Notes: generated by a model not told the origin, from the sequence alone. DNA of 64,000 nucleotides from a virus (IMGVR_UViG_3300023174_000099:1-64000), one strand, 5' to 3'; positions 12,907-32,722 are shown, numbered from the stretch's first letter. Program-made: numbers and translations.

Positions 12907-13065
12907 TAATAATCGGCGGCACAGCTAGGCCAGCTAGTGTCTCATCTGCGAATCTTGTCTGGGCGTGCGCAGACCCTAGGCCACCTGTGGAGGTGGTAAT
13001 GAGGAAGGGACAAGAGCCGAATATAAATACAATAAATAAACCTAATATTAGGTTAAGAATTTGCC

Positions 13066-13085
13066 GAAAAGGGTAGCTCCCCTGA
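13066..13085 (+). promoter_or_regulatory. Conserved homing-endonuclease leader motif GAAAAGGGTAGCTCCCCTG (copy 1 of 4)
   Basis: Near-identical copies at about 27667, 28634 and 32660, each 40-70 nt upstream of an HNH or GIY-YIG gene. Confidence 0.6.
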
Positions 13086-13128
13086 CTTCTCCCTTGAAGA
13101 AGTCTAGGCAATTAGTTTCAAGGGAACA

Positions 13129-13800
13129 ATGAAAACAACAGGTATAATATATAGAATTTGGAATATAAAAAGTGGTAAATCGTATATAGGTAAAACATAT
13201 AGATGCTTTTATATACGAATAGATGAACATATAAAACAACGATATAGACCCGTACATAAAAATAGACCTATTTATAGAGCTTTAAATAAATATGGGTTAG
13301 AAGCGTTCTCAGCAGAAATATTAGGCACTTTTTGCTCATCTATACTAGACGAGCAAGAACAATATTTTATAAAATTATATAACTCATTTGGGTCTACAGG
13401 GTATAATGCTACCCAGGGTGGCGAAGGTACAAAACTTTTATCAGTTGACACCGAACTCTTAATGGATACCTACAATAAATATGGCAATATAGCCGCAACG
13501 GCCAGATATTTAAAAATTGATGATGGAACGTGCACTAGACTTCTAAAATCAATACCTGAGTTTAAAGCTAGAACAAGAAATGATATTTTTAGAATGGGTA
13601 TAAAACCTGTTTTACTAGAAGACTTAGAATTTACTTTTAATGATGTTTATGAGTGTGCTAATTTCTTAATACAATCAGATGTATCTAATATTACTAATGA
13701 GGTACAAGTTGCTAAATCAATTAGAAAAGTTTGTACGGGGCATTTAAAAACATATCTAGGATTAAAGTTTTCATATACAGATACTGCGGACGTGGTATAA
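13129..13800 (+). CDS. GIY-YIG homing endonuclease
   Basis: N-terminal IYRIWNIKSGKSYIGKT...R...H motif (GIY-YIG). C-terminal region conserved with the ORF at 32723. Confidence 0.75.
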   Translation: MKTTGIIYRIWNIKSGKSYIGKTYRCFYIRIDEHIKQRYRPVHKNRPIYRALNKYGLEAFSAEILGTFCSSILDEQEQYFIKLYNSFGSTGYNATQGGEGTKLLSVDTELLMDTYNKYGNIAATARYLKIDDGTCTRLLKSIPEFKARTRNDIFRMGIKPVLLEDLEFTFNDVYECANFLIQSDVSNITNEVQVAKSIRKVCTGHLKTYLGLKFSYTDTADVV

Positions 13801-14203
13801 ATAGATGTGCCATAGCTTTCCAAGCTATAGATGCCCGCGCGATACGGGTCGTCCGCTCCAGAATATGCCGCTCTAAGGAGATAATAGCTGCTATGCATTT
13901 ATGCGCAGATAGCCGGTGTTCTAGCCCCTTATGGGGATAAACCAGCAAAACTAGCGATATGCTAGGCTAGGCTGCTGCGGTTAGTCCACGCGTTGTATGG
14001 ATTACGTGTACCTAGAAGGTCTTATCGAACCTACCACGTAAAATCCAGCATGATATACTGGCGTCACTGTTTACGCAATACAGTCGGTAACGCATTCAGC
14101 CGTTAGTGTGAATGACTGCGTTTTTGTTAGTTTAACGCAAATAAGAGAAAACAATACTGACCACCCGGAACAGTCGGGTAGTCCCACTAGCGCGGTGGGC
14201 GGC

Positions 14204-14240
14204 TAGGCCCGATCATCTTCGTGATGGTCGGGCCTTTTGC
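14204..14240 (+). terminator. Rho-independent terminator: ggcccgatcatc...gatggtcgggcc + TTTTGC
   Basis: 12-bp stem plus T-tract. Confidence 0.6.
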
Positions 14241-14304
14241 TTAAAAAGTTCTTGACATTCATCCCAATTTTTGTTATATTACTAAAACTAGAGAAGGAGA
14301 ATTT

Positions 14305-14640
14305 ATGTTTTGGTTCCGCGAGAAGAATAACCTGACCCTTGCTTTTCGTTATGCGAAGCAAGCAACGACTGACAATATGGTAAAGAAGTATGGCGGCAGT
14401 CTAGTCGCCAGCCCCAAGATGCCCGAAAATGCACCTAATGGCGATATTATGTCAGTTCTTACTAACTCAGAACCCCAAACAGAAGCTGCTGCCATTACCT
14501 CTGGAGACTTCAAGGTCATAGTTCAGACAGCAGACGGCTCCTGGACCGAGCACAGTAGTTCAGCTACTATTAGTGAAGCCAATACAACGGCAAAAGAGAT
14601 TATTAAGTTTTACAGCGCAGTAGTAGTTGTAAAACAATAA
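14305..14640 (+). CDS. Hypothetical protein (111 aa)
   Basis: Promoter at 14250-14280; RBS gaaggagaa. Confidence 0.5.
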   Translation: MFWFREKNNLTLAFRYAKQATTDNMVKKYGGSLVASPKMPENAPNGDIMSVLTNSEPQTEAAAITSGDFKVIVQTADGSWTEHSSSATISEANTTAKEIIKFYSAVVVVKQ

Positions 14641-14823
14641 TTAGAGAAGTAATTTGGACTACGATCAACTTAAGCAAGCAGTAGAACTACTTGCCGACTC
14701 ATTCTGCCAACTAGCAGAGCGTGCTTCTGACATAGCTTACGCACGTCGTGAACTATACGAAGCATACCTACTAGAAGGTTTCACCCCAGAGCAAGCCCTG
14801 GAGCTATGTAAGGTACTATAACA

Positions 14824-15078
14824 ATGCAAATTAATATCAACACAAAGGGCTTCGGCCTAGTAGACTACACTATGAATACTAGTTTTTCTACAGAGGGTAC
14901 TGTGACTGTAACCGCTCCAGAAGCTGAACAGGACACACTATCTCCGCTAGATGAAATTCAGGAATATCTAAGCGCTATCAAGGAAGTATTCCTTTCTCCT
15001 GAGTATGACGATGAGACAATGGGCTGTATAGTCGAGGATTATATTATCGCCATTCAAGAGGTTCTAGATGCTAACTGA
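14824..15078 (+). CDS. Small acidic hypothetical protein
   Basis: ORF track; D/E-rich. Confidence 0.4.
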   Translation: MQININTKGFGLVDYTMNTSFSTEGTVTVTAPEAEQDTLSPLDEIQEYLSAIKEVFLSPEYDDETMGCIVEDYIIAIQEVLDAN

Positions 15079-15394
15079 TTTTGAGTATTCTCAAATCATA
15101 GAGTTACTAGTTTTAGAAGACAGATCCTTTGAAGAGGTTCAACAAATGCTAAACTTAACCGAAGATCAAATGGACGAGGCTTTGTCTAAGATGGAAGAGG
15201 ATGGGTATATTCAAACCCATACAATCCATTGAGTTGCGCTGCCTGTAAATATGGTGAGATGCTAGTAAGTAAGGGTAGTACCTTTAGTATGCTAAATCCA
15301 GTCGGAGACGAGGTAACTCGTATTCATGAAGAAACAGTATTGATCTGTCGAGCAATGCCTCCAATATCAGGTTCTTTTCCACAAGTAACAGAGG

Positions 15395-15622
15395 ATGATT
15401 GGTGTGGACAATTTAGCCCAACCCCCGAAAATGGCTGATTATCGCTTTGGCGAACTAATCAAAGCTGAAAACTATGCATATGCTCGCGGACTCATGGTAA
15501 GTCCAGTTCATCTTCCGGGAGCACTAGACGCAATGCTGGCAGATGGCTGGGAGCTAATGAGTATTTTTGGCGAGACAAACTCAGAAAAGATTGGGTTTAT
15601 CTTCAAAAAAGTCTTGAAATAA
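15395..15622 (+). CDS. Hypothetical protein
   Basis: ORF track. Confidence 0.35.
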   Translation: MIGVDNLAQPPKMADYRFGELIKAENYAYARGLMVSPVHLPGALDAMLADGWELMSIFGETNSEKIGFIFKKVLK

Positions 15623-15648
15623 CTGTTAGAAGGGCTTATATTAGAACC

Positions 15649-15987
15649 ATGACAGACAAATTCACACAAGAGTTTAATGATTATAACAAGCTGATGCGTC
15701 GGCTTGGTTCTAAGCAGATGAGCCTGTTCGAGTACAAAAAGTACCGTGCAGGCCGTATGCGTGTGTCTAAACATGGGGTAAAAAAGGCCCCAATGCATGC
15801 CGAGTCGCTTCGCCGCGAGTCTCCTAAGATTCCTAGCGGTGACGGTATTGCATATACTCCTATGAGCGAGGCCCCTAAAGAATACACAGGTACATTTGTC
15901 AAGGGCATTGGCACAATGCACAAGAGTAACAGTGTGCCAGTAACCAACGACGAAGATGCTCTAGCTATTGCAAGGATGAGACGATGA
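15649..15987 (+). CDS. Hypothetical protein (112 aa)
   Basis: ORF track. Confidence 0.4.
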   Translation: MTDKFTQEFNDYNKLMRRLGSKQMSLFEYKKYRAGRMRVSKHGVKKAPMHAESLRRESPKIPSGDGIAYTPMSEAPKEYTGTFVKGIGTMHKSNSVPVTNDEDALAIARMRR

Positions 15988-16634
15988 AAGTATATATCGG
16001 ACCCTACTCAAGTTACCTTGTCACTTTTCGTAATCTAGAACACAAGTACGAAGCCTATCGGGCAGAGAAGCTTGGTATTCCCTTCTATAGCTACGAACCC
16101 GTAACCAAGGTAGATAAGGCTTTTGGAAAATCAGTAGACTTTCTAGAACGCTTCTTCTTGCCAGTAAACCGCTACTGGAACTCTCGTAAGCGCAGGATCA
16201 ATGTACAGATTCATGACTATGATGTTTGGGGCGTCGATCATACTCTAGCTCTCATTATTGTTCCTATGCTTGAAAAACTAAGAGAGAAGAAGCACGGCTC
16301 ACCTCATGTCGATCTAGATGATGTTCCAGAACATCTTCGAAATGAAGAAGACTTTCATGAGCGTTGGGATTGGGTTCTAGACGAAATGATCTGGGCCTTT
16401 GAACAACATCGGAAAGAAAATTGGGAAGATCAGTACTGCCACAATGTTGACCAACTCGATGTTACTTTTAAGAGTATCCCGAACTCAACGAACTCGGAGC
16501 TTCTAGTAAATCGGCAAAAGGACGTTAATAAACCCAAGTACTGGTATGACCAAGATGGTGCTAAAGCCCATTCTGATCGTATGGATAACGGACGTAGACT
16601 GTTTGCTAAGTATTATAACTGTCTCTGGGATTAA
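15984..16634 (+). CDS. Hypothetical protein (216 aa)
   Basis: Start overlaps the upstream stop. Confidence 0.5.
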   Translation: MKVYIGPYSSYLVTFRNLEHKYEAYRAEKLGIPFYSYEPVTKVDKAFGKSVDFLERFFLPVNRYWNSRKRRINVQIHDYDVWGVDHTLALIIVPMLEKLREKKHGSPHVDLDDVPEHLRNEEDFHERWDWVLDEMIWAFEQHRKENWEDQYCHNVDQLDVTFKSIPNSTNSELLVNRQKDVNKPKYWYDQDGAKAHSDRMDNGRRLFAKYYNCLWD

Positions 16635-16654
16635 GGCTTGACTTTGCTTGGCCA

Positions 16655-16984
16655 TTGATGTATTATAACAACATGGCGAAGAAAGAGCAGAACATCACGG
16701 CGATTATCTATGATAAGAAGGGCCGTGTCCTTTCTGTAGGTAAGAACTCATATATTAAGACCCACCCCAAGCAGGCTAAGCTCGCGCAAAAAGCTGGCCT
16801 GCCAATGAAGGAGTTTCTCCATGCGGAAGTCGCTAGTATCATTCGCTGCAAAGACTTGTCTAAGGCGTACAGAATTGTAGTGTACCGGAATAATAAGGCA
16901 GGCTTTGCAAATGCGGAACCCTGTCCAATCTGTAAACTTGCGATTAAAGAAACCGGCATCAAACAAGTGGAGTGGACCAAATGA
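16655..16984 (+). CDS. Cytidine/dCMP deaminase-like zinc-binding protein
   Basis: HAE...PCxxC signature (LHAEVASII ... PCPICKLAI); promoter at 16638. Confidence 0.55.
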   Translation: MMYYNNMAKKEQNITAIIYDKKGRVLSVGKNSYIKTHPKQAKLAQKAGLPMKEFLHAEVASIIRCKDLSKAYRIVVYRNNKAGFANAEPCPICKLAIKETGIKQVEWTK

Positions 16985-17190
16985 ACTTTCGTGAAATCCT
17001 AGAAGCTAAGACCCGCGAAGCTCTTGAAGCGTCAGCCTATTGCTCAGGGGGTGATGACTACCTACAGGGTATGTTCTATCTTAATCCCTTCGATGAAGGC
17101 ACAAAGGCTCATTTAGACTACTTCATTGGGTATGAAGATATGCGCTTCCTCCAGACTATGGAAAGGTTTGAACATCGTGTTACAGCTTGA
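16972..17190 (+). CDS. Hypothetical protein
   Basis: ORF track. Confidence 0.35.
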   Translation: MDQMNFREILEAKTREALEASAYCSGGDDYLQGMFYLNPFDEGTKAHLDYFIGYEDMRFLQTMERFEHRVTA

Positions 17191-17423
17191 AGAATATGAG
17201 GGCGAACTTGCAGAACTGCGAAAGCTAAAGGCAGTCATTCGCCACAATGTCCTAGCCGAAAAGCTAGGAAATATTTTCTTTATTTGCGGAGAGACCGGAA
17301 GTAAAGACGATAATGGGCTACCAGAGAATATTCTAGTATGCCCTGCATACGGATGTGACTGGTTTCAAGTCTATAAAAGGACTGAAAAGACCCATGGCCC
17401 ACAATATTAATAAGGAATCAAAA

Positions 17424-17681
17424 ATGCCACGCTATCTAGTTGAAACAGTATCAAGTTTTCGTATCTCATATTGGGTTGAGGCATCTGAACCCGAACATGC
17501 CGCTGATGAAGTTATAATGCATGATGCAACTGAGTTTACTCAAAGGCATCTAGATGAAGTGATCTTTAATGTTCGTGAGATTTCAAATGAGGATGCAGAA
17601 ACAGAATTCTTTGAAGAGCATCCCTATCTTGCTGACACGAATGTAGACATTCTAGAATACCTTCACAAAATCAAGTATTAA
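17424..17681 (+). CDS. Small acidic hypothetical protein
   Basis: ORF 17355..17681 trimmed to the ATG after RBS taaggaatcaaaa. Confidence 0.4.
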   Translation: MPRYLVETVSSFRISYWVEASEPEHAADEVIMHDATEFTQRHLDEVIFNVREISNEDAETEFFEEHPYLADTNVDILEYLHKIKY

Positions 17682-17746
17682 CATAAATCCTCCATTGAGC
17701 TGTAATATAGCCCAATGGAGGATTTTTCGTGCAAGGAGAATATTAA

Positions 17747-18057
17747 TGATTTCGGATAATTTTAAGCCTCTAGATACTTTTTTATTAGAATTGAGACAAA
17801 TATATAGAGAAAGTGCCGACTTATACAAATTGGAAGCCAATACCTTCTGGGATGGCTTATCTGAGGATGATAAGCTTAAAGCTTTCTATTCAGTAGTGAG
17901 CCGTATTTACAAAGGTGAAATTAAAGACAAGGGATCTTATCGCTATGTTCTTTATGATGTATTTGGATTTGGTCCTGAAGCCTATGGACTTGGTATGGAA
18001 TGTGGGTATCTGTACTTACATAATGCCATCATAGATGGAGAAAAAACTAATGAATGA
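17747..18057 (+). CDS. Hypothetical protein
   Basis: ORF 17695..18057 trimmed to the ATG after RBS caaggagaa. Confidence 0.45.
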
Positions 18058-18192
18058 AGCAAAAATAAAACAAGCGTTTGAGAAGGTTTTTCCAAAAGTT
18101 TACGAGCGCCCTGGAATCTATCCATTCAAAACTGATATTTATAAAATTGTACAAGACACAATTGAGGCACTTCTACCTTCTAGTACTATGCC

Positions 18193-18423
18193 ATGGGACA
18201 AGGAACTTTGATTACAGCAGAGTTACTAGCATATTGTGCTAAAGAGGTCGAGTTTGGTGATGAACCAATTGACCTGGGCATGACACCTCTTGACATTGAT
18301 GAAATCTATAGACTCATGTCTATCACCGTAGCCGAAATGGAAGCTGATGAGCTGGTTCTACGAGCGTCCGTAGTAAAGCTCCTAGTAGAGAACTTCGTTC
18401 TCAATTACAGGCTTATGACATGA
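18193..18423 (+). CDS. Hypothetical protein
   Basis: ORF track. Confidence 0.35.
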   Translation: MGQGTLITAELLAYCAKEVEFGDEPIDLGMTPLDIDEIYRLMSITVAEMEADELVLRASVVKLLVENFVLNYRLMT

Positions 18424-18620
18424 AGTATTATACTTATCAAGACCCGGATGGTACGCATACTTTCTCTACAAGTCAAATCTTTGATCAGTATTGGCCCTAC
18501 TGGTACTCAAAGATGGTCAAGAAGTACGGCCCAGACAGTCCTCTAGTCAACTGGGAAAGTTGCCTAGACGACTGGATAACGGTACATTGGGCTTACGAAG
18601 AGCGTCCTACTGAAAAGTAG
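18420..18620 (+). CDS. Hypothetical protein
   Basis: ORF track; ends at the terminator. Confidence 0.4.
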   Translation: MKYYTYQDPDGTHTFSTSQIFDQYWPYWYSKMVKKYGPDSPLVNWESCLDDWITVHWAYEERPTEK

Positions 18621-18650: not shown

Positions 18651-18718
18651 AACGATTTCTCACCTAATGTTACGTGTACGTAAAAAGGCCCGCTGAAATT
18701 AATCAGCGGGCCTTCATT

Positions 18719-20203: not shown

Positions 20204-20980
20204 ATGGCTGAAAAATGGACAATAGAAGAAGACAACATTATAATAGACTTAAGAAGTCAGGGAATACCTTATAAAGTAATTCATAAGGATCATTTATTTA
20301 ATAGAAGTTTAAGAAGTGTACAAGTAAGGGGCTCCCTATTAATAAATAGGGGTAAAATAAATACTAATAAAAAGTTTAAACAAATATCTTGGACTGACAA
20401 AGAATGTGAAGAGTTAATTAAGTATAAAGTACTAGGATTTTCAACTGCAGAAATATCTAGTAAATTAAAAAAGACGGAGAGTTCTATTGCGAATAAAATA
20501 AGTATACTATCTTCTGGTATATCCAGTAAAAAAGCTTTTATTGAAGAAATAAGGGGTATAGTTAATCAATATAGGACAGAGGAAGAGTACCTATTAAGAT
20601 TTTATCATAGTAGAGATATACCTGAATTAGAAGCATTATTAGATATATTTTCTGATTATGAAGAAGCTAGAGTGATTTTATTAAATGATTCCAGCGTTTC
20701 ATATCTTTACTATGTAAAAATACAATCACTGGATAACAGATACTTCTATAAAATAGGCATAACATCAAAAGATGCTACAAGCAGATTTAAATATGAAAAA
20801 ATAAACTACTTAAAAGTTATAAAAACATGGGAATTTTCTACGTTAAAAGAAGCGAGAGAAAGAGAAAAAGAAATTTTAAGAAAATATAAAGATAAAAGGT
20901 TAACTTCAGATAACGTAATTCTATCAAAGGGTGGAAATACAGAGTTATTCAATGAAGATATCTTGGGTTTGGATGCTTAA
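20204..20980 (+). CDS. T5orf172/MUG113 domain protein with N-terminal Myb/SANT-like repeats (paralog 2)
   Basis: MAEKWTIEEDNII.., SWTDKECEELI..; C-terminal YFYKIGIT...GGNTELF. Confidence 0.7.
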   Translation: MAEKWTIEEDNIIIDLRSQGIPYKVIHKDHLFNRSLRSVQVRGSLLINRGKINTNKKFKQISWTDKECEELIKYKVLGFSTAEISSKLKKTESSIANKISILSSGISSKKAFIEEIRGIVNQYRTEEEYLLRFYHSRDIPELEALLDIFSDYEEARVILLNDSSVSYLYYVKIQSLDNRYFYKIGITSKDATSRFKYEKINYLKVIKTWEFSTLKEAREREKEILRKYKDKRLTSDNVILSKGGNTELFNEDILGLDA

Positions 20981-21452: not shown

Positions 21453-21462
21453 AATATATCTT

Positions 21463-21491
21463 GACTTTTCGAGCATAATTTGTTATAACAA
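21463..21491 (+). promoter_or_regulatory. sigma70 promoter: TTGACT-17-TATAAC
   Basis: aaatatatcTTGACTtttcgagcataatttgtTATAAC. Confidence 0.45.
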
Positions 21492-21532
21492 ATGCATAGT
21501 CGCTGACGATTTGTAATAAAAATGGACAGCAC

Positions 21533-21560
21533 GCGAGTTCGACTCTCGCCGTCTCCACCA
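21533..21560 (+). other. tRNA 3'-half-like element (T-arm gcgagTTCGACTctcgc + 7-nt acceptor strand + A + CCA) with no recognisable 5' half
   Basis: Matches canonical T-arm, acceptor and CCA geometry. No complementary 5' acceptor strand found within 90 nt upstream. Confidence 0.35.
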
Positions 21561-21875
21561 TTTACGGGGACGACTTGGAAATCGACTGACATTACATAGA
21601 CCTTTCCGAGACTATTGACTGGCAAAGTGCCATAATTAACTGCAAACGATAACGTTGCATTCGCGCTAGCTGCATAAGCTAGACGACAGGCGGTGGGAGC
21701 CTTGGAACAGAATCCCACACTCAAAGGAGAGATATGCGTAACATTTGGACAATACCTTTTAATAATAATTATTATATTTGCTGGAAAGACAAACAAGGTA
21801 AGACCCAGCATCGTCCAATGACTGATGCAGAAGATCGTGCCTACTTTACCTCCAAAGACCCTGAAAGAACCCTAA

Positions 21876-22186: not shown

Positions 22187-22594
22187 TTGGAGAAACGAAT
22201 GGAATTCATCCTAAGTATAATAGGGTTCGGAAAAGCTGCCGTTAAGTGGGCCTTTGACAACTGGCGAATAACAATTCCGATTCTAGCTATTGTAATAACT
22301 TTTCTTTGGACAAAGGAACATTATTACATCCAGGGTCGGGAAGACTGTCGCGTAGAGTGGGAAGCTAAAGTAACTGCTGAGACCCTAAAGAACGAGAAAC
22401 TTAGTAAAAAACTAATTGATAACTCGATCAAGTTTGGTGAGCATACAGACAAAGACAATAACGAGCGCAAAGAGAAGGAGACTTCTATTCAGACTCGTAT
22501 TGAAACAATCGTCGAAAAGCCCATCTATCAGGAGTGCAAGGTCGATGCCGAAGTCGTAACAGACCAGAATAAACTGAAGGAGGCACTAAAGTGA
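22187..22594 (+). CDS. Putative i-spanin (N-terminal TM + coiled coil)
   Basis: TM segment ITIPILAIVITFLW then a charged coiled-coil region; the o-spanin gene overlaps at its 3' end. Confidence 0.45.
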   Translation: MEKRMEFILSIIGFGKAAVKWAFDNWRITIPILAIVITFLWTKEHYYIQGREDCRVEWEAKVTAETLKNEKLSKKLIDNSIKFGEHTDKDNNERKEKETSIQTRIETIVEKPIYQECKVDAEVVTDQNKLKEALK

Positions 22595-22869: not shown

Positions 22870-23135
22870 AAGACACACTAGAAGAACGAGGCTTACGGTA
22901 CGGAGCTTTTGAAGAGCACGCTACTATAGCTCAGGCTATTCAGGATGCTTACCGAATTAGACCTGAGCGTTGGGAGAAACTTCCCCCCGTATTAAAACAA
23001 GGTCTTACCACTATCGCAGATAAGATTGCTCGTATGTTAAATGGCGATCATATGTACGAAGATAATATACATGACATTGTTGGCTACGGAAAGCTTATGG
23101 AAAATTGGGTTCGTAAAGAAAATAATACCAAGTAA
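22860..23135 (+). CDS. Hypothetical protein
   Basis: ORF track. Confidence 0.4.
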   Translation: MSVEDTLEERGLRYGAFEEHATIAQAIQDAYRIRPERWEKLPPVLKQGLTTIADKIARMLNGDHMYEDNIHDIVGYGKLMENWVRKENNTK

Positions 23136-23200
23136 AATTTAATTTACCAACTAATAAAAAGTTCTTGACATATGTAGGTATTTATGCTAAAGTATATATT

Positions 23201-23884
23201 ATGAATAAATATATATTTACAAAAATGCTTGTAGAAGCATACAATAGAAACCCAACAGATATAGTAAAAAGGAAAAGAGGACATGTTCCTGAGATAACAT
23301 TTGACGACTTATGCTATAAAATTTTTGAACTAGAAAATATTACTTTAGTATCCAAAAGTTTTGGTATAACGCATAAAACGTTAAAGTCAGCTTTAGTGGA
23401 TGCATTTCCAGATATTGCTGAAGTAAAAGATAAAAGTACAGTTTGGAGAGTAGAATTACTTTTAAAACTAGGGTATAGAAGATGTGTAACCTGTAAAGAA
23501 GATAAAGCTTTGGAAGAATTCTATAATAGTAAGTCTGTAAAAGCTGGAAAGAGTTATGACTGTAAAGACTGTTCTAAGGAGGCTAACAAGCAACAAAGGA
23601 TTCATAGACCAGAAATAATTAGAGCCTCTAATGCTAAAAGGAAAGCAATAATAAAAGGTGCTTCTTTGAATGGAGCTAACTTAGACTTAATAAAAAAGAT
23701 TTATAAAGAATGTCCTGAAGGGTACCAGGTAGACCACATTTACCCATTGTCTAAGGGAGGAGACCATCATGAATCAAATCTATGTTACCTTCCTGCTCAG
23801 TTAAATCTACAAAAACAAGCTAAGTCACCAGAGGAAGTTCCTGAAATTATGAAATATGCAATTTATCCGGATCTAAGCCAATGA
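23201..23884 (+). CDS. HNH homing endonuclease with zinc-finger region
   Basis: ORF 23165..23884; start probably ATG 23201 after the promoter at 23161. YQVDHIYPLSKGGDHHESNLCYLP is an HNH motif; Cys cluster CVTC...CKDC. Confidence 0.75.
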   Translation: MNKYIFTKMLVEAYNRNPTDIVKRKRGHVPEITFDDLCYKIFELENITLVSKSFGITHKTLKSALVDAFPDIAEVKDKSTVWRVELLLKLGYRRCVTCKEDKALEEFYNSKSVKAGKSYDCKDCSKEANKQQRIHRPEIIRASNAKRKAIIKGASLNGANLDLIKKIYKECPEGYQVDHIYPLSKGGDHHESNLCYLPAQLNLQKQAKSPEEVPEIMKYAIYPDLSQ

Positions 23885-26983: not shown

Positions 26984-27009
26984 CTTTTAAGATAATCTGG
27001 GATATACTT
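26981..27009 (+). promoter_or_regulatory. sigma70 promoter: aaaagttcTTGACT-17-TATACT, positioned to start transcription 4 nt before tRNA-Leu
   Basis: TTGACT 26981-86, TATACT 27004-09. Confidence 0.55.
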
Positions 27010-27019
27010 TGTAAGTAAT

Positions 27020-27106
27020 GAGGGCGTGGCGAAACTGGTTATACGCGCGAGACTTAAAATCTCGTGGATTGATTCCGTGTGGGTTCGAGTCCCACCGCCC
27101 TCACCA
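27020..27106 (+). tRNA. tRNA-Leu (anticodon TAA), type II with long variable arm
   Basis: Acceptor gagggcg/cgccctc, anticodon loop cuUAAaa, T-arm gtgggTTCGAGTcccac, CCA. Confidence 0.75.
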
Positions 27107-27296
27107 GATCTAGGAGAACACAATGCGAGTAATTATTCAATCAGTTTATCGTCTTCGCGATAAATTCATTACAGCTTATTATGCGTATCCTCAGTTCTCT
27201 CTAGAGATTGAGGACAAGATGGCCAGTGAACTTACATTTCTGCAAAGGCTGAAAGTGCCTTTTACACTGGAAATGAAGGTCGAGCAAAAATAATCC

Positions 27297-27325
27297 TTGA
27301 CTTTGTTGCCCAATTTGTCTATATT
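27297..27325 (+). promoter_or_regulatory. sigma70 promoter: aataatccTTGACT-17-TATATT
   Basis: Sequence. Confidence 0.5.
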
Positions 27326-27344
27326 ACATTGAAAGGAAACGGGA

Positions 27345-27620
27345 ATGACTATTGATGAGATTCGCGATCAACTTCGGCAGGGAACCCTAGAGGTTCACTT
27401 CAAGAAGAAGGACGGCTCAGTTCGTCGTATGATCTGCACTACACACACTGATGTGCTTGGTGATTCCTCAGAAAGCACTCGTAGCGCTCCCGTTTTTCAG
27501 AATGAGATTGTAACCGTATGGGACATGGAAGCCGATGCTTGGCGTTCCTTCCGGTTTGATAGTATTATTAATTTTGGACCTGTATCGCCCCCGCCTTCTA
27601 AGCGGTCGTTAAAAGCGTAA
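27345..27620 (+). CDS. Hypothetical protein; 3' end runs into a degenerate tRNA-like element
   Basis: RBS aaaggaaacgggaATG. Confidence 0.45.
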   Translation: MTIDEIRDQLRQGTLEVHFKKKDGSVRRMICTTHTDVLGDSSESTRSAPVFQNEIVTVWDMEADAWRSFRFDSIINFGPVSPPPSKRSLKA

Positions 27621-27657
27621 TTGGAGTATGCAGGTTCGAGTCCTGCTAGGTTCACCA
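27577..27657 (+). other. Degenerate tRNA-like element (good T-arm gcaggTTCGAGTcctgc, acceptor, ACCA; no foldable anticodon arm)
   Basis: ggacctg/taggttc acceptor pairing with wobbles; the internal region does not fold into D or anticodon arms. Confidence 0.3.
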
Positions 27658-27727
27658 GTTTGCCGAAAAGGGTAGCTCCCCTGTTAGTGCCTATACACTA
27701 ACTAGGCAAAGTCTTATAGGAGACAAA

Positions 27728-28306
27728 ATGTACAGAGAAATTAAAGAAAATGAACTAAGAATAGATAGCTCACTAAAGTATGCTTACTTTCTAGATAAGA
27801 ATCATCCACTAGCAACTGGTAACTCATATAGGGTTTACTACCATAGGCATATAATGTCAATGAAGCTAGGCAGATGGGTTACTTCAGAAGAAGTTGTTCA
27901 TCACAAAGATGAAAACCGTTCCAATAACTCAATAGATAATCTAGAATTAACAACTAATAGTGAACATGCTAGGCTACATCAAACTATATTAGTAGATATA
28001 ACCTGTCAATGTTGTAATACCATGTTTAAACCAAAAGACTCAGATCAGATTTATTGCAGTCAAAAATGTGCTTCCTTAGCTAGACAGAAAAAGAGTCATA
28101 ACTCTTTTGATAAAAGCTTATTGGAAAAACAAATTTGGGAGCTTGGATTTACACAGACAGGTAAAATATATGGCTACTCAGATACTGGTATTAAAAAGTT
28201 AGCCAAAAAGTTAAATTGTGCTTTACCTCCTCCATATTTTCATAATAAAATACGAAGTTCCGAGGAAAGACTAAATTCATATTATTCGGATGTAGCTCAG
28301 CGGTAG
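27728..28306 (+). CDS. HNH homing endonuclease with C-terminal zinc ribbon; 3' end overlaps tRNA-Asn
   Basis: HHKDENRSNNSIDNLELTTNSEHARLH is an HNH motif; CQCCN...CSQKC; leader motif GGGTAGCTCCCCTG upstream. Confidence 0.75.
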   Translation: MYREIKENELRIDSSLKYAYFLDKNHPLATGNSYRVYYHRHIMSMKLGRWVTSEEVVHHKDENRSNNSIDNLELTTNSEHARLHQTILVDITCQCCNTMFKPKDSDQIYCSQKCASLARQKKSHNSFDKSLLEKQIWELGFTQTGKIYGYSDTGIKKLAKKLNCALPPPYFHNKIRSSEERLNSYYSDVAQR

Positions 28307-28361
28307 TAGCTCTTGTCTGTTAAACAAGTGGTCGCAGGTTCGATCCCTGCCATCCGAGCCA
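28286..28361 (+). tRNA. tRNA-Asn (GTT)
   Basis: Acceptor tcggatg/catccga, loop cuGUUaa, T-arm gcaggTTCGATCcctgc, CCA. Confidence 0.75.
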
Positions 28362-28377
28362 GTTTTTGGAGATAACC

Positions 28378-28545
28378 ATGCTAGAAATAGCTATTGCACT
28401 ATACGTAATTGTCGGAATCATTACGTTTCTAACGGCGATCTCCGATAAATATGTTAAGTTAAACTCTAAACTAACAACTATTTTTGGTTTACTTAGTTTC
28501 GTTTGGCCCATCCTTTGGCTAGTTTATCTAGTCGATGAGCTATAA
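28378..28545 (+). CDS. Small membrane protein (55 aa, below the ORF-track cutoff)
   Basis: ATG after RBS tggagataacc; two hydrophobic segments. Confidence 0.35.
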   Translation: MLEIAIALYVIVGIITFLTAISDKYVKLNSKLTTIFGLLSFVWPILWLVYLVDEL

Positions 28546-28573
28546 AATATTGTGGGCCTGTATTTCAAAGGTA

Positions 28574-28648
28574 GAAAATGCTCCTCATAAGAGCTAAGAT
28601 GGGAGTTCGAGTCTCTCCGGGCCTACCAAGATAGCTGAAAAGGGTAGC
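28574..28648 (+). tRNA. tRNA-Met (CAT)
   Basis: Acceptor gggcctg/cgggcct (2 GU), loop cuCAUaa, T-arm gggagTTCGAGTctctc, CCA. Confidence 0.6.
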
Positions 28649-28701
28649 TCCCCTGTTAGTACCTATATGCTAACTAGGCTAATGCCTTATAGGAGGCTAA
28701 A

Positions 28702-29295
28702 ATGTTAATTTCAGAGAAAGAAGAACTTATAGCTTTAATATTAAGTGACTTAGATACAAGTATCTTACATAGATATAATATAAACTTTACTATTTTTTGT
28801 AATGCCATAGCTAGTGGTGAAAATCTCCACTCCAAGTTGGGTGTAAGTTACAATAGTTTAAGTAAAATAATTAAGGACTTGTTTCCCAATAAAAATAAAG
28901 GTAAACTCCTAAATTATGTATTATCTTTAGTAGATCACAAAGTTTGTACTAGTTGCGAAAAATTCTTGCATACAGAAGATTTTAGATTAAACTCAAGCAA
29001 TGCTGATGGTCTTAATGCACATTGCAAAATGTGCCATGCTGTAGTTACTTATAAAACACAAAATTATAGACAATCAAACTATAATGCTAGAAAGGCTCAG
29101 AGAACTCCCAAATGGGCGAACCTTGAGACAATAAAAGAGTTTTATTCTAAGTGCCCAGAAGGCTACCATGTAGATCATATAATACCTTTGAACGGGGAAT
29201 TAGTATGCGGATTACATGTTGAGAATAACCTTCAATATCTAACAGCGCAAGAAAATATTCAAAAGAGCAATAAGTTTGTGCCTTATAGTATATGA
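28702..29295 (+). CDS. HNH homing endonuclease with zinc-finger region
   Basis: EGYHVDHIIPLNGELVCGLHVENNLQYLTAQEN is an HNH motif; CTSC..CKMCH; conserved leader motif upstream. Confidence 0.75.
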   Translation: MLISEKEELIALILSDLDTSILHRYNINFTIFCNAIASGENLHSKLGVSYNSLSKIIKDLFPNKNKGKLLNYVLSLVDHKVCTSCEKFLHTEDFRLNSSNADGLNAHCKMCHAVVTYKTQNYRQSNYNARKAQRTPKWANLETIKEFYSKCPEGYHVDHIIPLNGELVCGLHVENNLQYLTAQENIQKSNKFVPYSI

Positions 29296-29858
29296 CAACA
29301 ATTCTTGCACTAGACATGTCGGGAACTCCTCGTGCATGGATCAATTGCGACGAAGCCATTAGCTATCATGCTAAAGACCTCGTCGCATGGTCACTTGGCG
29401 AAACTGTCGCTGAGTATCACGGAGGGTTCAATCGTATAACCGGAAAGCAGAGCAAGCTTGAAACTAGCAGTATTATTGCTATTAAAGGCTCCGAGTTCCA
29501 TAAACATACTAAAGTTCTTCTAACAAATCCTACCCTTTTTGCTAGAGACAGGCATTTATGTGCTTATTGTGGGTTTACCCATACCAATCATAGATTTTTT
29601 AGCCGCGATCATATTGTGCCACGTTCGCGTGGTGGTAAAGACGAGTGGACTAATGTGGTTACAGCCTGCGTGCCTTGTAATCAAGAGAAAGGCGCTAAGA
29701 CTCTTAATGAGTCTGATATGAGTCTTATTTATGTTCCCTATGCTCCTAATCACTATGAGAATATGATTCTTAAGAACAAACGTATTCTAGCAGATCAAAT
29801 GGAATATCTCCTAGCAGGAGTTCCAAAACACAGTAGGGTGTGGTGGCCGACCGTTTAG
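29292..29858 (+). CDS. HNH endonuclease (McrA-like)
   Basis: CAYCG...DHIVPRSRGGKDEWTNVVTACVPCNQEK. Confidence 0.75.
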   Translation: MTTILALDMSGTPRAWINCDEAISYHAKDLVAWSLGETVAEYHGGFNRITGKQSKLETSSIIAIKGSEFHKHTKVLLTNPTLFARDRHLCAYCGFTHTNHRFFSRDHIVPRSRGGKDEWTNVVTACVPCNQEKGAKTLNESDMSLIYVPYAPNHYENMILKNKRILADQMEYLLAGVPKHSRVWWPTV

Positions 29859-29913
29859 GCATCTGATTGCAACCCAGATTCAAGCAGGTTAAATTCCTGT
29901 CCACACCTCCAAT

Positions 29914-29987
29914 GCCGGTATAGTTAAGTGATATAACAGTTGCCTTGTAAGCATCAGTTCAGAGTTTGATTCTCTGTTCCGGCACCA
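29914..29987 (+). tRNA. tRNA-Thr (TGT)
   Basis: Acceptor gccggta/ttccggc (1 mismatch), loop cuUGUaa, T-arm cagagTTTGATTctctg, CCA. Confidence 0.6.
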
Positions 29988-29988
29988 C

Positions 29989-30064
29989 GTACCCTTAGCT
30001 CAATGGTTAGAGCGACCGCCTTTTAAGCGGTAGGTTCCGGGTTCAAGTCCCGGAGGGTTCACCA
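29989..30064 (+). tRNA. tRNA-Lys (TTT)
   Basis: D-arm gctcaatggttagagc, loop cuUUUaa, T-arm ccgggTTCAAGTcccgg, CCA. Confidence 0.7.
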
Positions 30065-30071
30065 TAATTAC

Positions 30072-30145
30072 GTCGGTGAAGTGTTACGGTAGCACGGCGG
30101 TCTCCAAAACTGCAAGCCAGAGTTCGACTCTCTGCACCCTCGCCA
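30072..30145 (+). tRNA. tRNA-Trp (CCA) with two adjacent acceptor-stem mismatches (2-71 U-U, 3-70 C-C)
   Basis: Anticodon stem gcggt/actgc with loop cuCCAaa, T-arm cagagTTCGACTctctg, CCA. Confidence 0.5.
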
Positions 30146-30146
30146 T

Positions 30147-30220
30147 TTCCCGTTCGTCTAAAGGTAGGACCCTAGACTTTGAATCTGGTTATCGTGGTTC
30201 GAATCCACGGCGGGAAACCA
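30147..30220 (+). tRNA. tRNA-Gln (TTG)
   Basis: Acceptor tttcccg/cgggaaa, loop cuUUGaa, T-arm cgtggTTCGAATccacg, CCA. Confidence 0.7.
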
Positions 30221-30410
30221 ATTAGGAGATTATTGTGCTTCTTAGTACTTACGAACAAAATAATAGAATTGCTAAAATTCATAGAGAAGACGAAACTTTC
30301 GTCGTCTATATGTATGAAGATAATATTTTAAAAGAGCGCAGACCTCTTATTGGTTATTCTGAGCAATATGCTGAGAACTGCGCTGAAAACTGGATTACAG
30401 GAATTATTTA

Positions 30411-30620
30411 ATGTTTCTAAAAGCAATTTGGTCAGAAGGTTGCCCCAAGCGGGAATATACAGCGGGTCACATGGGCGACGCTCGTGGTGAAACGCTAGAA
30501 GAAGTTTGTAATGATCTAGCCTCTCGTAAGGAATGGTTCGCGCGCAAGTATAAAAACTTGCGATATGATGGGATGCGACTATTTCTTAGCGAGGAAGAAG
30601 CTAGAGAAAGTTTTGGGTGA
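30411..30620 (+). CDS. Hypothetical protein (69 aa); 3' end abuts tRNA-Ser
   Basis: ORF track. Confidence 0.4.
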   Translation: MFLKAIWSEGCPKREYTAGHMGDARGETLEEVCNDLASRKEWFARKYKNLRYDGMRLFLSEEEARESFG

Positions 30621-30703
30621 GTTGGCTGAGCGGTCTAAAGCGACAGTTTGCTAAATTGTTGTACTTAACGGTACCGAGGGTTCGAATCCCTCACTCACCT
30701 CCA
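30616..30703 (+). tRNA. tRNA-Ser (GCT), type II
   Basis: Acceptor ggtgagt/actcacc, loop uuGCUaa, long variable arm gtacttaacggtac, T-arm gagggTTCGAATccctc, CCA. Confidence 0.7.
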
Positions 30704-30718
30704 TTAAAATAGATGTTG

Positions 30719-30747
30719 ACTTGTCACCCTAACTAGGGTATATTACG
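30719..30747 (+). promoter_or_regulatory. sigma70 promoter: TTGACT-17-TATATT with CCTAACTAGG-like spacer
   Basis: TTGACTtgtcaccctaactagggTATATT; spacer motif shared with the promoter at 32381. Confidence 0.5.
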
Positions 30748-30773
30748 TTATTCTCTTTAAGAAAGGTTAATTT

Positions 30774-31565
30774 ATGAATTTTAAGATTATCGCCGTATCA
30801 GCCCTAGCTCTTACTCTAGCTGCTTGCTCGCGTGTTGAGACTGGCCAGTCAGCTATCCGCGTCAACTTTGATAAGACCATTGAAAAGGAAGAACTACTTC
30901 CAGGTTCGTTTAATCAAACTCTATTTGGGGATGTTCTTCTGTTTCCCGTCAAGGACGTTTCTGTATCTGTAGAGGATCTAACTCCTCTAGCGTCGGATAA
31001 CAGCACTGTTGCAGACTTTGACGTATCAATCATCTACAACATTAATCCAAGCTCAGTAGCTGATATCTACACAACTAAGAGCCGTTCATTCCATGCTACG
31101 GACGACGAAGGCCACACCTATTTGATGTTCAATTATATGCATCAGGTTGGTCGCAATGCGGTCTATAAGATCGCTCGCCGGTACGAATCGCTGAAGATGA
31201 ATGATAGCCGAGCTGAGATTGAGAACTCTATTCGTGAAGAAGTTGTTCGTTCGCTTCAGGAAGAAAAGCTTGATACCTCAATTAATATCTCGCAGGTTCT
31301 AGTCAAGCAGATTATTCCTGCTAAAAACATCGTTCAGTCAGCTAACCTTCTGGTTCAGGCTCAGAACGAGCGTAAGCGTAAGGCTGTTGAAGTCGATACT
31401 GCTAAGCTAGAAGCTGAACGTATTGCGGCTCTGAATGCTAACGCTGGTGCGACCAAGTACATGGAAGCTACTGCTATCGTTACGATTGCGGAAGCGGTTG
31501 CTGCTGGTAAGGTTAACACGATCGTAATTCCATATGACTTCAAGGGCATTGTGAACGTAAAATGA
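30774..31565 (+). CDS. SPFH/band-7 (prohibitin/HflK-like) domain lipoprotein
   Basis: Signal plus lipobox LTLAAC; C-terminal Ala/Glu-rich coiled region typical of SPFH proteins. Confidence 0.5.
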   Translation: MNFKIIAVSALALTLAACSRVETGQSAIRVNFDKTIEKEELLPGSFNQTLFGDVLLFPVKDVSVSVEDLTPLASDNSTVADFDVSIIYNINPSSVADIYTTKSRSFHATDDEGHTYLMFNYMHQVGRNAVYKIARRYESLKMNDSRAEIENSIREEVVRSLQEEKLDTSINISQVLVKQIIPAKNIVQSANLLVQAQNERKRKAVEVDTAKLEAERIAALNANAGATKYMEATAIVTIAEAVAAGKVNTIVIPYDFKGIVNVK

Positions 31566-31819
31566 TTATTTGGCTTATCGGATTCCTAGCGTTTATCTTT
31601 TATCGGACTTTTAAGGCCGGTATGAAGTCAGATAGTCTATTCTACATGGATAGAATGGAATATACTACTGACTATACTAAGAAAGTACTAGTACGTAAAT
31701 TTGATGGAGATAAGTTATTTTTCTACGGTATTACAACTATTGTCGTAGGACTCTCATGGCCTATCTCGTTACCCTGCATTGGCATTTACCTACTAGGCAA
31801 GCGATTCACTGCTAAGTGA
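31562..31819 (+). CDS. Small membrane protein (2 TM), translationally coupled to the SPFH gene
   Basis: ATGA overlap; hydrophobic IIWLIGFLAFIF and ITTIVVGLSWPISLPCIGIYLLG. Confidence 0.45.
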   Translation: MIIWLIGFLAFIFYRTFKAGMKSDSLFYMDRMEYTTDYTKKVLVRKFDGDKLFFYGITTIVVGLSWPISLPCIGIYLLGKRFTAK

Positions 31820-31831
31820 TTTATAGGAGGC

Positions 31832-32224
31832 GTGAGTATGAGACTATTCTTCAAGTCTAAAGATGGCGGTCCAGATAGCTCTGTAACAGGCTACTGGCTT
31901 ATCGAGTCAAAGAAGCTCTTTTCTATTGTGCTTCTCAAATTTGACGGTCGTAGCCGTGAAGCTTATCATACTCACGCCTTCAATGCATGGAGTTGGATTC
32001 TTCCTAGTGGACTCGGCATGACGGAACATCTAGAAGATGGGTCTAGAAAGTTTCTCAAGCCTGATTCCTTTGTGTTTACTCCTCGTGATCGGATGCACAA
32101 AGTAGACAGTAATGGCACTACTTGGGTTCTGTCTTTTAGAGGCCCTTGGTTGGACAATTGGAAAGAAATTAACGAGCATGGTCATCAAACGCTGACACAT
32201 GGTCGCAAAGTTATGGACACTTAG
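31832..32224 (+). CDS. Hypothetical protein (130 aa)
   Basis: RBS ataggaggcgtgagtATG. Confidence 0.5.
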   Translation: MSMRLFFKSKDGGPDSSVTGYWLIESKKLFSIVLLKFDGRSREAYHTHAFNAWSWILPSGLGMTEHLEDGSRKFLKPDSFVFTPRDRMHKVDSNGTTWVLSFRGPWLDNWKEINEHGHQTLTHGRKVMDT

Positions 32225-32289
32225 CTCAGTAGGTAGAGCGCAGCCCTCTTAAGGCTTAGGTCACAGGTTCGATCCCTGTAGTGTCTACC
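32215..32289 (+). tRNA. tRNA-Lys (CTT)
   Basis: D-arm gctcagtaggtagagc, loop cuCUUaa, T-arm acaggTTCGATCcctgt, CCA. Confidence 0.55.
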
Positions 32290-32290
32290 A

Positions 32291-32368
32291 TATGCCCGTA
32301 GCTCAACTGGAATAGAGCGTCTGATTACGAATCAGAAGGTTGAGGGTTCGAGTCCTTCCGGGCATACC
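32291..32368 (+). tRNA. tRNA-Arg (ACG)
   Basis: Acceptor atgcccg/cgggcat, loop uuACGaa, T-arm gagggTTCGAGTccttc, CCA. Confidence 0.7.
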
Positions 32369-32380
32369 ATAAAATACATA

Positions 32381-32409
32381 TTGACTTAGTAGCCTAACTA
32401 GGCTATATT
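32381..32409 (+). promoter_or_regulatory. sigma70 promoter inside the tRNA array: TTGACT-17-TATATT, TSS about 3 nt before tRNA-Ile
   Basis: TTGACTtagtagcctaactaggcTATATT. Confidence 0.55.
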
Positions 32410-32418
32410 ACATAAATG

Positions 32419-32504
32419 ATGTTCCATAGCTCAGCTGGTAGAGCGCGACACTGATAATGTCGAGGTCACTGGTTCGAACCCAGTTGGAACAACCATGGGG
32501 ATGT
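32419..32504 (+). tRNA. tRNA-Ile (GAT)
   Basis: Acceptor tgttcca/tggaaca, D-arm gctcagctggtagagc, loop cuGAUaa, T-arm actggTTCGAACccagt, CCA. Confidence 0.75.
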
Positions 32505-32505
32505 A

Positions 32506-32571
32506 GCTCACCGGGGAGAGCGTCTGATTTGCATTCAGAAGGTAGCAGGTTCGAGTCCTGTCATCTCCACC
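32506..32571 (+). tRNA. tRNA-Ala (TGC)
   Basis: Acceptor ggggatg/catctcc, loop uuUGCau, T-arm gcaggTTCGAGTcctgt, CCA. Confidence 0.7.
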
Positions 32572-32575
32572 ATTT

Positions 32576-32650
32576 TCTAGATGTGGCCTAATGGTAAGGC
32601 ACCGCGTTTGGGGCGCGGGGACTGGGAGTTCGAGTCTCTCCATCTAGACC
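32576..32650 (+). tRNA. tRNA-Pro (TGG)
   Basis: Acceptor ctagatg/catctag, anticodon stem ccgcg/cgcgg with loop uuUGGgg, T-arm gggagTTCGAGTctctc, CCA. Confidence 0.7.
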
Positions 32651-32722
32651 AGTTTTTGCTGAAAGGGTAGCTCCCCTGTCTGTCCTCCTACGACAGAATA
32701 AGCAATTCAAGTAGGAGTTAAA

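Follow-up and report, generated by a model that had tools for sequence, protein, structure and literature searches.

Background

Few selfish genes are as common in phages as those for free-standing homing endonucleases. To our knowledge, the way in which homing endonuclease genes (HEGs) stay harmless in arbitrary transcription units is understood for only a few T4-type cases. Leaders that hide the ribosome-binding site have been described for the phage genes encoding T4 I-TevI, T4 endonuclease VII (gene 49) and MobE of Aeromonas phage Aeh1 (PMC2677866), and ribosome-binding-site hairpins were noted for metagenomic free-standing "fractured gene" HEGs by Dassa et al. in 2009 (PMC2677866). Here we describe an element in a 64,000-nucleotide (nt) stretch of viral DNA (IMGVR_UViG_3300023174_000099:1-64000, termed the window below), in which an earlier note had drawn attention to a short motif upstream of four HEGs. 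The motif proves to be the core of an RNA leader of about 85 nt, which probably represents a previously undescribed, widespread RNA family among the translational-control leaders of HEGs and which, according to the modelled fold, would keep translation low or gated.

The window contains 21 transfer RNA (tRNA) genes and a permuted transfer-messenger RNA (tmRNA) gene. Its DNA polymerase A is 43-47% identical to the polymerases of T5-like phages of Proteus and Enterobacter, and the window seems, by its sequence, to belong to a distant T5-like phage.

Copies of the motif in the window

A pattern search of the window for the 19-mer GAAAAGGGTAGCTCCCCTG revealed four copies, all on the + strand, against 0.01 expected, and none of 100 shuffled sequences reached this number. 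Three of the copies are exact, and the fourth (TGAAAGGG...) differs by two mismatches, both on the 5' side. Each precedes the start of a HEG, as had been claimed, and the distance from the start of the motif to the ATG is 63, 63, 65 and 63 nt for copies 1 to 4, respectively. A covariance model of the 50-nt core assigns 49.7-68.7 bits to these copies and 11.5 bits to the next best site in the 64 kb; no fifth copy was found there, and the motif is thus not equally frequent away from HEGs. The extended similarity of about 70 nt described for two of the copies applies to copies 2 and 3.

The earlier note further held that each copy follows a tRNA or tRNA-like 3' end, which is the case for copies 2, 3 and 4 and not for copy 1. 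Thus, tRNA-Met (28554-28628) ends 3 nt before copy 3 and tRNA-Pro (32577-32651) 4 nt before copy 4, and 154 nt separate copy 1 from the nearest tRNA on its 5' side (another tRNA-Met), with no adjoining tRNA-like end. The segment 5' of copy 2 (27567-27658) is a degenerate tRNA-like stretch, which retains the anticodon loop CTTCTAA, the T arm and a terminal CACCA; it is not called by the tRNA finder and is overlapped by the 3' end of a WYL_2 open reading frame (ORF; 27345-27620). Its equivalent in L139 (4223-4299), an IMG/VR contig that is 87-97% identical to the window over 22.5-34.5 kb, is an intact tRNA-Arg(TCT).

A widespread leader with two core classes

Far from being confined to this phage, the motif is carried by hundreds of environmental phage contigs. 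Scanning IMG/VR with the 17-mer AAAGGGTAGCTCCCCTG yielded at least 117 stretches, essentially all of which exhibit one architecture. A second type of core, designated class C, GAA(A/U)A-(R)G(Y)-UUAGCG-GC(Y)-(C/G)UG, was found in 63 further IMG/VR stretches, the surrounding architecture being unchanged. Scans with two additional variant cores gave two chance matches without the architecture (GAAAAGAGTTGCAACTCCTG) and a copy that was already known (GARVGAGGTAGCTCCTCTG). The only cultured phage found with the element is Escherichia phage EP_H11 (OP688485.1, leader at about 22490-22575; 71.5 bits), and the carriers differ widely, as this coliphage and the T5-like phage of the window illustrate. 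In 596 Gb of bacterial and archaeal genomes, AAAGGGTAGCTCCCCTG has 19 exact matches, which is no more than chance; one of them, on a 4-kb contig of a metagenome-assembled genome, has the structure, and the other 18 score 18-30 bits, again the level of chance. Judged from these scans, the element appears to be essentially absent from the cellular genomes covered.

The shared order of parts among the IMG/VR copies is as follows: a variable 5' strand of helix P1 (4-8 nt), GAAAAGGGUAGCUCCCCUG, the hairpin P2, CUA or AUA, and the 3' complement of P1, after which come a brief linker, a strand able to pair with the P2 loop and, 7-8 nt further on, the start codon. In the leaders built around GAAAAGGGTAGCTCCCCTG, this corresponds to P1, GAAAA, the small hairpin Px (GGG-UAGCU-CCC), CUG, P2, CUA, the closing strand of P1 and a ribosome-binding-site hairpin, P3. 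P1, at or close to the predicted RNA 5' end, comprises 4-8 base pairs (bp), Px 3 bp with a loop that contains UAGC, and P2 5-8 bp with a loop of 6-7 nt; the three strands of the junction read GAA(N)(R), (C)UG and (C/A)UA across the copies.

In a HEG subfamily with proteins of 130-165 amino acids beginning MKTCxKCG (L142-L148, L157, L160-L163 and many class C loci), (C)ACCAA invariably comes after the P1 3' strand; this sequence resembles a tRNA 3' end, is lineage-specific and is kept even with the class C core. In addition, "solo" leaders without an endonuclease ORF occur at L084:2086-2135 (- strand), where a tRNA-Leu follows directly, and at L001:2868-2920; these may be remnants after loss of the HEG.

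Covariation of the helices

The alignments were obtained from scans with exact core patterns. The paired fraction of P1 and P2 over 69 distinct copies is 93.7%, compared to 42-48% in controls with a slid register, and 220 double-change cells were counted versus 62 in shuffles, although these cells do not represent independent events, since many of the IMG/VR copies are closely related. Px is 100% paired in 15 distinct cores, with changes on both sides at all three pairs, and diverged copies show compensatory changes inside the seemingly invariant block. Covariation is thus seen in each of the four helices and in the loop-loop pairing. The G-U pairs present among the helix pairs point to selection at the level of RNA. 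In the alignment of the four window leaders, the sequences 3' of the motif differ and yet keep their complementarity. The bases that are invariant in both core classes are GAA at the start of the first junction strand, UAGC in the Px loop, UG before P2 and UA before the P1 3' strand. Single-sequence minimum free energy (MFE) folding recovers the three-way junction in copies 1 and 2 and in EP_H11. By length, P1 with P2 (about 11 bp) and P3 with the loop-loop helix (about 11 bp) could run alongside each other.

Predicted burial of the Shine-Dalgarno sequence

The complementary cctata and tatagg segments, previously described as a hairpin, in fact represent a pseudoknot-type pairing between two loops, that of P2 and that of the ribosome-binding-site hairpin. 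On average, the P2 loop (mean 6.1 nt) forms 5.98 bp with the downstream strand, whereas swapped or shuffled loops form 4.2 bp. The pairing strand ends with GG or AG, 7-8 nt from the start codon, in 64 of 86 copies, and AG or GG comes next; consequently, the loop-loop helix contains the first half of the Shine-Dalgarno (SD) sequence. The same strand constitutes the loop of P3, the stem of which is formed between the linker and the second SD half plus spacer. This stem averages 4.24 consecutive bp, as opposed to 2.3-2.9 in controls, and covaries variously (ATCT/AGAT, ACCT/AGGT, TTCT/AGAA, GCC/GGC). The mean energies are -2.5 kcal/mol for P3 alone, about -5.5 kcal/mol for the loop-loop duplex and -16.3 kcal/mol for the upstream core. 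The predicted geometry places the whole SD sequence in helices that depend on a stable upstream domain. A translation-control structure, one of the roles suggested at the outset, is thus supported by the anatomy of the leader, in which the SD sequence would be buried in a covarying loop-loop helix and a hairpin.

A minimal relative of the leader is found at L149:1396-1500. It has a P1 of GGCC/GGUC, followed by GAAC and a single hairpin (stem UAGC/GCUA) with no separate Px, and its hairpin loop complements the loop of the ribosome-binding-site hairpin (UUAUCU-UGUCGG-AGAUAA).

Position relative to promoters

A sigma70-like promoter of the TTGACA-N17-TATAAC type is present upstream of 38 of the 98 distinct copies, and for 35 of them the distance from the promoter's end to GAAAA is 11-13 nt. 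Transcription is accordingly predicted to begin with P1, at its first base, which would make the motif part of a transcribed leader. The promoter-like sites are upstream of P1 and outside the fold. Other copies are situated in tRNA clusters, several of them 2-8 nt past the CCA end of a tRNA. The motif had been said not to be a sigma70 promoter, and indeed it sits downstream of such promoters where these occur. The alternative of a shared late promoter was rejected, as the element would lie within the transcript, its flanks covary as RNA helices, and none of the four window leaders contains the T4-type late promoter TATAAATA. A consensus promoter scan around copy 1 scored no higher than shuffles and placed no promoter at the element.

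The sequence TATAAATA does occur at 13022, and a perfect palindrome, AACCTAATATTAGGTT (13040-13055), is located just 5' of leader copy 1. The G+C-rich stretch of about 115 nt at 12907-13020, between tRNA-Met and the copy 1 cassette, has several inverted repeats, no ORF and no Rfam match.

Downstream nucleases and the boundaries of the cassettes

Almost all of the downstream genes code for nucleases, which belong to at least five fold families. Among 91 distinct downstream proteins, 63 match the PHROG endonuclease VII family, and Pfam adds HNH_3, HNH_2, GIY-YIG, LAGLIDADG, PD-(D/E)XK, DUF559 (Vsr-like) and T5orf172. Ten downstream proteins, picked because they apparently had no Pfam match, all fell into nuclease or HEG families in PHROGs. 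The class C copies precede genes of the same kinds. Within the window, the ORF at 28702-29295 had no match in the Pfam search (see Table 1 for its PHROG assignment). The 303-amino-acid ORF downstream of the EP_H11 copy matches neither Pfam nor PHROG, and its identity as a nuclease is unconfirmed.

Comparison of collinear relatives shows that the element is a component of a mobile HEG cassette, occurring or missing along with the HEG. Relative to phage IME392, which has neither the element nor the ORF, EP_H11 carries a 1052-nt insert that starts 6 nt before P1. Likewise, three of the window cassettes (2, 3 and 4) are missing from L139, in which no leader element was found, and each of these inserts begins at P1 (Table 1). 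The proposal that the sequence marks HEG cassettes is thereby supported, the element being at the 5' edge of the inserts in the three window cassettes and in EP_H11, and the association extends beyond what was proposed, to at least five nuclease folds and many phages.

The cassettes in the window are packed without spacers. The 3' end of the HNH_3 ORF extends 21 nt into tRNA-Asn (28286-28361; overlap 28286-28306), and the stop codon of the endonuclease-VII-type ORF overlaps the ATG (ATGA, 29292-29295) of the next gene, of the HNH_5 type (29292-29858). The tRNAs that flank the cassettes (28286-28361, 28554-28628, 32577-32651 and 33385-33460) have strongly diverged from their L139 equivalents, with identities of 68% for Pro, 71% for Val, 75% for Met and 79% for Asn; the values for non-adjacent tRNAs are 100% (Ala), 100% (Leu) and 93% (His). 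From the sequences, this divergence looks like the result of co-conversion tracts or target-site immunity, and it suggests that the HEGs of the window target tRNA genes.

Table 1. Leader copies, downstream HEGs and cassettes in the window. MFE, minimum free energy fold; CM, covariance model score; SD, Shine-Dalgarno sequence; aa, amino acids.
Feature	Position	Strand	Details
Copy 1, three-way-junction core	13061-13111	+	CM 61.5 bits; MFE recovers P1, Px and P2
Copy 1, P1	13061-13065 with 13107-13111	+	
Copy 1, invariant block	13066-13084	+	exact GAAAAGGGTAGCTCCCCTG
Copy 1, Px	13071-13073 with 13079-13081	+	GGG with CCC
Copy 1, P2	13085-13103	+	loop CCCUUGA 13091-13097; CUA 13104-13106
Copy 1, P3 (ribosome-binding-site hairpin)	13112-13128	+	direct reading; (U)CAAGGG 13118-13124 complements P2 loop; weak stem GUU/AAC around it; loop-loop duplex -9.5 kcal/mol; ATG at 13129
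GIY-YIG HEG, 223 aa	13129-13800	+	Pfam GIY-YIG, E = 1.2e-6
Copy 2, core	27660-27709	+	CM 68.7 bits; MFE equals model structure, z = -2.5
Copy 2, P1	27660-27664 with 27705-27709	+	
Copy 2, invariant block	27665-27683	+	exact GAAAAGGGTAGCTCCCCTG
Copy 2, P2	27684-27701	+	loop CCUAUA 27690-27695; CUA 27702-27704
Copy 2, P3	27711-27724	+	stem GUCU 27711-27714 with AGAC 27721-27724; loop UAUAGG 27715-27720 pairs with P2 loop; SD AGGAG across loop and stem; ATG at 27728
HNH_3 HEG, 192 aa	27728-28306	+	Pfam HNH_3, E = 1.8e-14
Copy 3, core	28632-28681	+	CM 62.7 bits
Copy 3, P1	28632-28636 with 28677-28681	+	
Copy 3, invariant block	28637-28655	+	exact GAAAAGGGTAGCTCCCCTG
Copy 3, P2	28656-28673	+	loop CCUAUA; CUA 28674-28676
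Copy 3, P3	28684-28697	+	stem GCCU 28684-28687 with AGGC 28694-28697; loop UAUAGG 28688-28693; ATG at 28702
Endonuclease-VII/His-Me-type HEG, 197 aa	28702-29295	+	PHROG endonuclease VII, E = 2.9e-15
Copy 4, core	32656-32705	+	variant 5' junction UGAAA; CM 49.7 bits
Copy 4, invariant block	32660-32678	+	TGAAAGGG...
Copy 4, P2	32679-32697	+	loop CUCCUAC 32685-32691; AUA 32698-32700
Copy 4, P1 3' strand	32701-32705	+	
Copy 4, ribosome-binding-site region	32706-32722	+	GUAGGAG 32711-32717 holds SD and complements P2 loop; duplex -9.3 kcal/mol; P3 stem of just 2 bp (AA/UU); ATG at 32723
GIY-YIG HEG, 166 aa	32723-33223	+	Pfam GIY-YIG, E = 8.2e-7
Cassette 2	about 27662-28281		in L139, tRNA-Arg then directly tRNA-Asn
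Cassette 3	28629-29291		in place of 8-nt spacer between tRNA-Met and HNH_5 gene
Cassette 4	32652-33384		splits tRNA-Pro and tRNA-Val, 1 nt apart in L139

Other features of the window

An HNH_4-type HEG-like gene at 23165-23884 (probable start 23201) has no leader of the present kind. It is equipped with its own promoter, TTGACA-N17-TAAAGT, and its ATG is about 7 nt past the -10 box, an arrangement resembling that of leaderless genes. L139 has 245 nt in place of window positions 22948-23880. The permuted tmRNA gene (21457-21721) is of the two-piece, alpha type with the tag ANDNVAFALAA, and possibly points to a host among the Alphaproteobacteria. A group I intron (43603-43958; Rfam, 76.7 bits) interrupts the DNA polymerase A gene (41889-43634), and 3' of this intron lie an ORF of 186 amino acids (43968-44528) and then more ORF pieces; the locus (41889-44528) probably consists of an intron-associated HEG and a split polymerase gene.

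A probable cis-acting leader and its alternatives

On the strength of the modelled fold, we consider it rather probable that the element is a cis-acting 5'-leader RNA of mobile HEG cassettes, which represses translation by burying the ribosome-binding site. The stable upstream domain would anchor the fold that hides this site and would thus hold translation of the HEG at a low level, and the leader would free HEG translation from the context of the host transcript, be it a tRNA operon or a region downstream of a strong promoter. The invariant junction and loop bases may serve as a tertiary clamp or as a pocket for a host-independent signal (a small molecule, an ion or a conserved factor), and either could tighten or release the loop-loop contact. 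This latter assignment is probable as well, though we make it less firmly. The approximately 11 invariant bases, together with the loop-loop contact in L149, which is achieved without Px, suggest for the junction a role beyond presentation of the P2 loop.

Several points weigh against translational repression as the role of the leader. The effect on translation is read from the structure alone, and a constitutive attenuator would not obviously need some 11 invariant bases. The MFE fold misses P1 and Px in copy 3 and P1 and P2 in copy 4, and the latter copy is nearly devoid of a P3 stem. Because the samples were gathered by exact core patterns, conservation of the core is overstated, which is partly offset by the protein-sampled set and by class C. 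About 13 of 80 homologues of one endonuclease-VII-type HEG family, picked by homology and not by the motif, carry the element, always in the leader; within the window, the HEG-like genes at 20204-20980, 23201-23884 and 29292-29858 are without it. With many HEGs lacking the element, it is evidently not required by HEGs. Moreover, riboswitches normally precede genes that point to a ligand, and HEGs point to none.

The same bases could belong to a riboswitch or factor-responsive switch, in which a pocket formed by the junction and the Px loop would recognize a universal metabolite, an ion or a host factor, gate the hold on the P2 loop and so time HEG translation. This refines, and does not contradict, the repressor described above; it is a possibility to which we lend limited credence. 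The helices covary around bases that are invariant in two core classes, an aptamer-like pattern, and the core is coupled to a platform (the loop-loop helix and P3) that contains the SD sequence, both of which are features of riboswitches; the sequestration in L149 without Px leaves room for an added contribution of the junction, and the spread over very different phages argues for a signal that is independent of the host. However, the gene context, consisting of homing-type nucleases of unrelated folds, provides no ligand, the sequences show no sign of an alternative fold for the ligand-free state, and no known riboswitch class matches. It is improbable, in our estimation, that the element is a small self-cleaving ribozyme or an RNase processing site that releases the HEG mRNA from an upstream tRNA or operon transcript, or, in a variant of this idea, frees the ribosome-binding site through a cut between the junction and P3. 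Its size (about 50 nt), with a junction, a loop-loop contact and about 11 invariant bases, is reminiscent of hammerhead or pistol ribozymes, several copies lie 2-8 nt past a CCA end, and the P2 loop pairs along its whole length with a strand downstream, as is also the case in the pistol topology. Yet many copies start at the predicted transcription start, such that nothing upstream would have to be removed, no conserved candidate cleavage dinucleotide was found, no Rfam ribozyme model matches even at E <= 10, and on direct reading the hammerhead core CUGANGA is absent and HDV-like (hepatitis delta virus) threading fails.

An element acting at the DNA level, either an operator at which a dimeric protein recognizes the imperfect palindrome GGGTAGCTCCCC or a promoter served by a phage-specific polymerase or sigma factor, would account for a palindromic core at a fixed position before each gene, and a long, highly conserved core is also typical of T7-type promoters. 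We regard it as very unlikely, since the flanking helices covary with G-U pairs, which are relevant in RNA only, the class C cores keep the hairpin without being palindromic in like manner, and the upstream sigma70-type promoters put the core inside the transcript; a phage-specific polymerase is also unlikely to be common to a coliphage and a T5-like phage. Least credible of all is a passive hitchhiker with no function of its own, derived from a tRNA-gene remnant or reflecting recent common ancestry of the cassettes. GUAGCUC does resemble tRNA positions 7-13, and many copies reside in tRNA clusters, some after partial tRNAs, but neither the tRNA finders nor the Rfam tRNA model score the element, and pairing and junction bases have been kept despite saturating divergence of the ORFs, P1, P2 and P3 and despite the unrelated folds of the encoded proteins.

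Implications

A module common to endonuclease-VII/HNH, GIY-YIG, LAGLIDADG, PD-(D/E)XK and Vsr-like HEGs would provide a general answer to the question of how HEGs are tolerated: translational control would travel with the cassette, as a natural example of a genetic insulator. In the annotation of phages and viromes, the motif can be used to mark where HEG cassettes begin on the 5' side. With two core classes and abundant covariation, the element is also a strong candidate for a new family of structured RNAs, perhaps a new riboswitch or ribozyme class. More speculatively, HEGs of many unrelated families may have captured a new class of riboswitch or small ribozyme as a portable sensor or timer, a proposal that we put forward only tentatively. 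If it is true, a universal cellular or infection signal, or self-cleavage, would decide the timing of the nuclease, and HEGs could invade any phage genome without harm. Since the cultured coliphage EP_H11 has a canonical copy, the element is directly testable in E. coli.

Comparison with known RNAs

Searching the whole window against Rfam 15 at gathering thresholds gave nothing at any copy. Permissive searches also returned nothing at the elements (E <= 10 on 27600-28760 and E <= 5 on 12600-13140), and five other loci had no match at E <= 1. ARAGORN and the Rfam tRNA model called the neighbouring tRNAs and not the element. A literature search with the core sequence and for HEG-associated RNA motifs found no description of the element, the sole match for GGGTAGCTCCCC being an unrelated paper on human NCSTN genetics; what it did turn up was only the general idea of hairpins that sequester the ribosome-binding site (PMC2677866). 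A catalogue of 10,006 unnamed candidate structured RNAs (csRNAs) has been compiled from IMG/VR intergenic regions (PMC10690425); its text describes no endonuclease-associated motif, and the motif may be among its unnamed models.

A number of identities were tried and rejected. In a tRNA-like reading, the resemblance is confined to positions 7-13 and to ACCAA in one subfamily, which is lineage-specific, and no tRNA model scores. Dimerisation via the palindromic AGCU loop is not compatible with the class C loop, UUAGCG, which is not palindromic. In hammerhead threading by hand, a G would occupy position "17", and the junction strands GAAAA/CUG/CUA cannot be matched to CUGANGA/GAAA/H; in HDV threading, the P1 of HDV would require pairing between the 5' end and the strand that follows Px, which is not seen. 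As for mimicry of 16S rRNA helix 24 (GGUAGUCC), the resemblance amounts to only 8 of 9 positions.

Like the preQ1-I/II, SAM-II/V and guanidine-III riboswitches, the element is small, with covarying helices, invariant bases and half of the SD sequence in a pseudoknot-type helix. In contrast to these pseudoknot riboswitches, it has no Rfam match, contains a three-way junction with a kissing hairpin and precedes genes that are not metabolic. A UAGCU loop segment and a 3' CUA are likewise found in the preQ1-I aptamer of B. subtilis, a resemblance that we take as a lead only. The corresponding UAG:CUA pairing with the Px loop was rejected: AUA variants occur without compensation, and the Px-loop variants UGCA (L036) and UCGCU (L178) keep CUA.

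With the hammerhead and pistol ribozymes and the synthetic insulator RiboJ, the element shares its size and a junction or hairpin loop that pairs with a distal strand, and its position at the start of the cassette suggests a RiboJ-like insulating role. The core sequences do not match, however, and no cleavage site was found; for the hammerhead, HDV-like, twister, pistol and hatchet ribozymes, neither the class cores and topologies nor Rfam matches were observed.

The closest relatives in terms of function would be the T4-type HEG hairpins, in which a cis-acting RNA leader occludes the SD sequence of an endonuclease gene, limits or delays its translation and travels with the HEG. The effect on translation is established for those systems, and the fold predicted here likewise occludes the SD sequence. 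The T4-type hairpins are simple and lineage-specific, and the late promoter TATAAATA lies within the hairpin, such that shorter transcripts relieve the repression. The present element, on the other hand, has no embedded late promoter and exhibits a conserved three-way junction with a loop-loop contact, and in hundreds of contigs a single core accompanies HEGs that span five or more folds.

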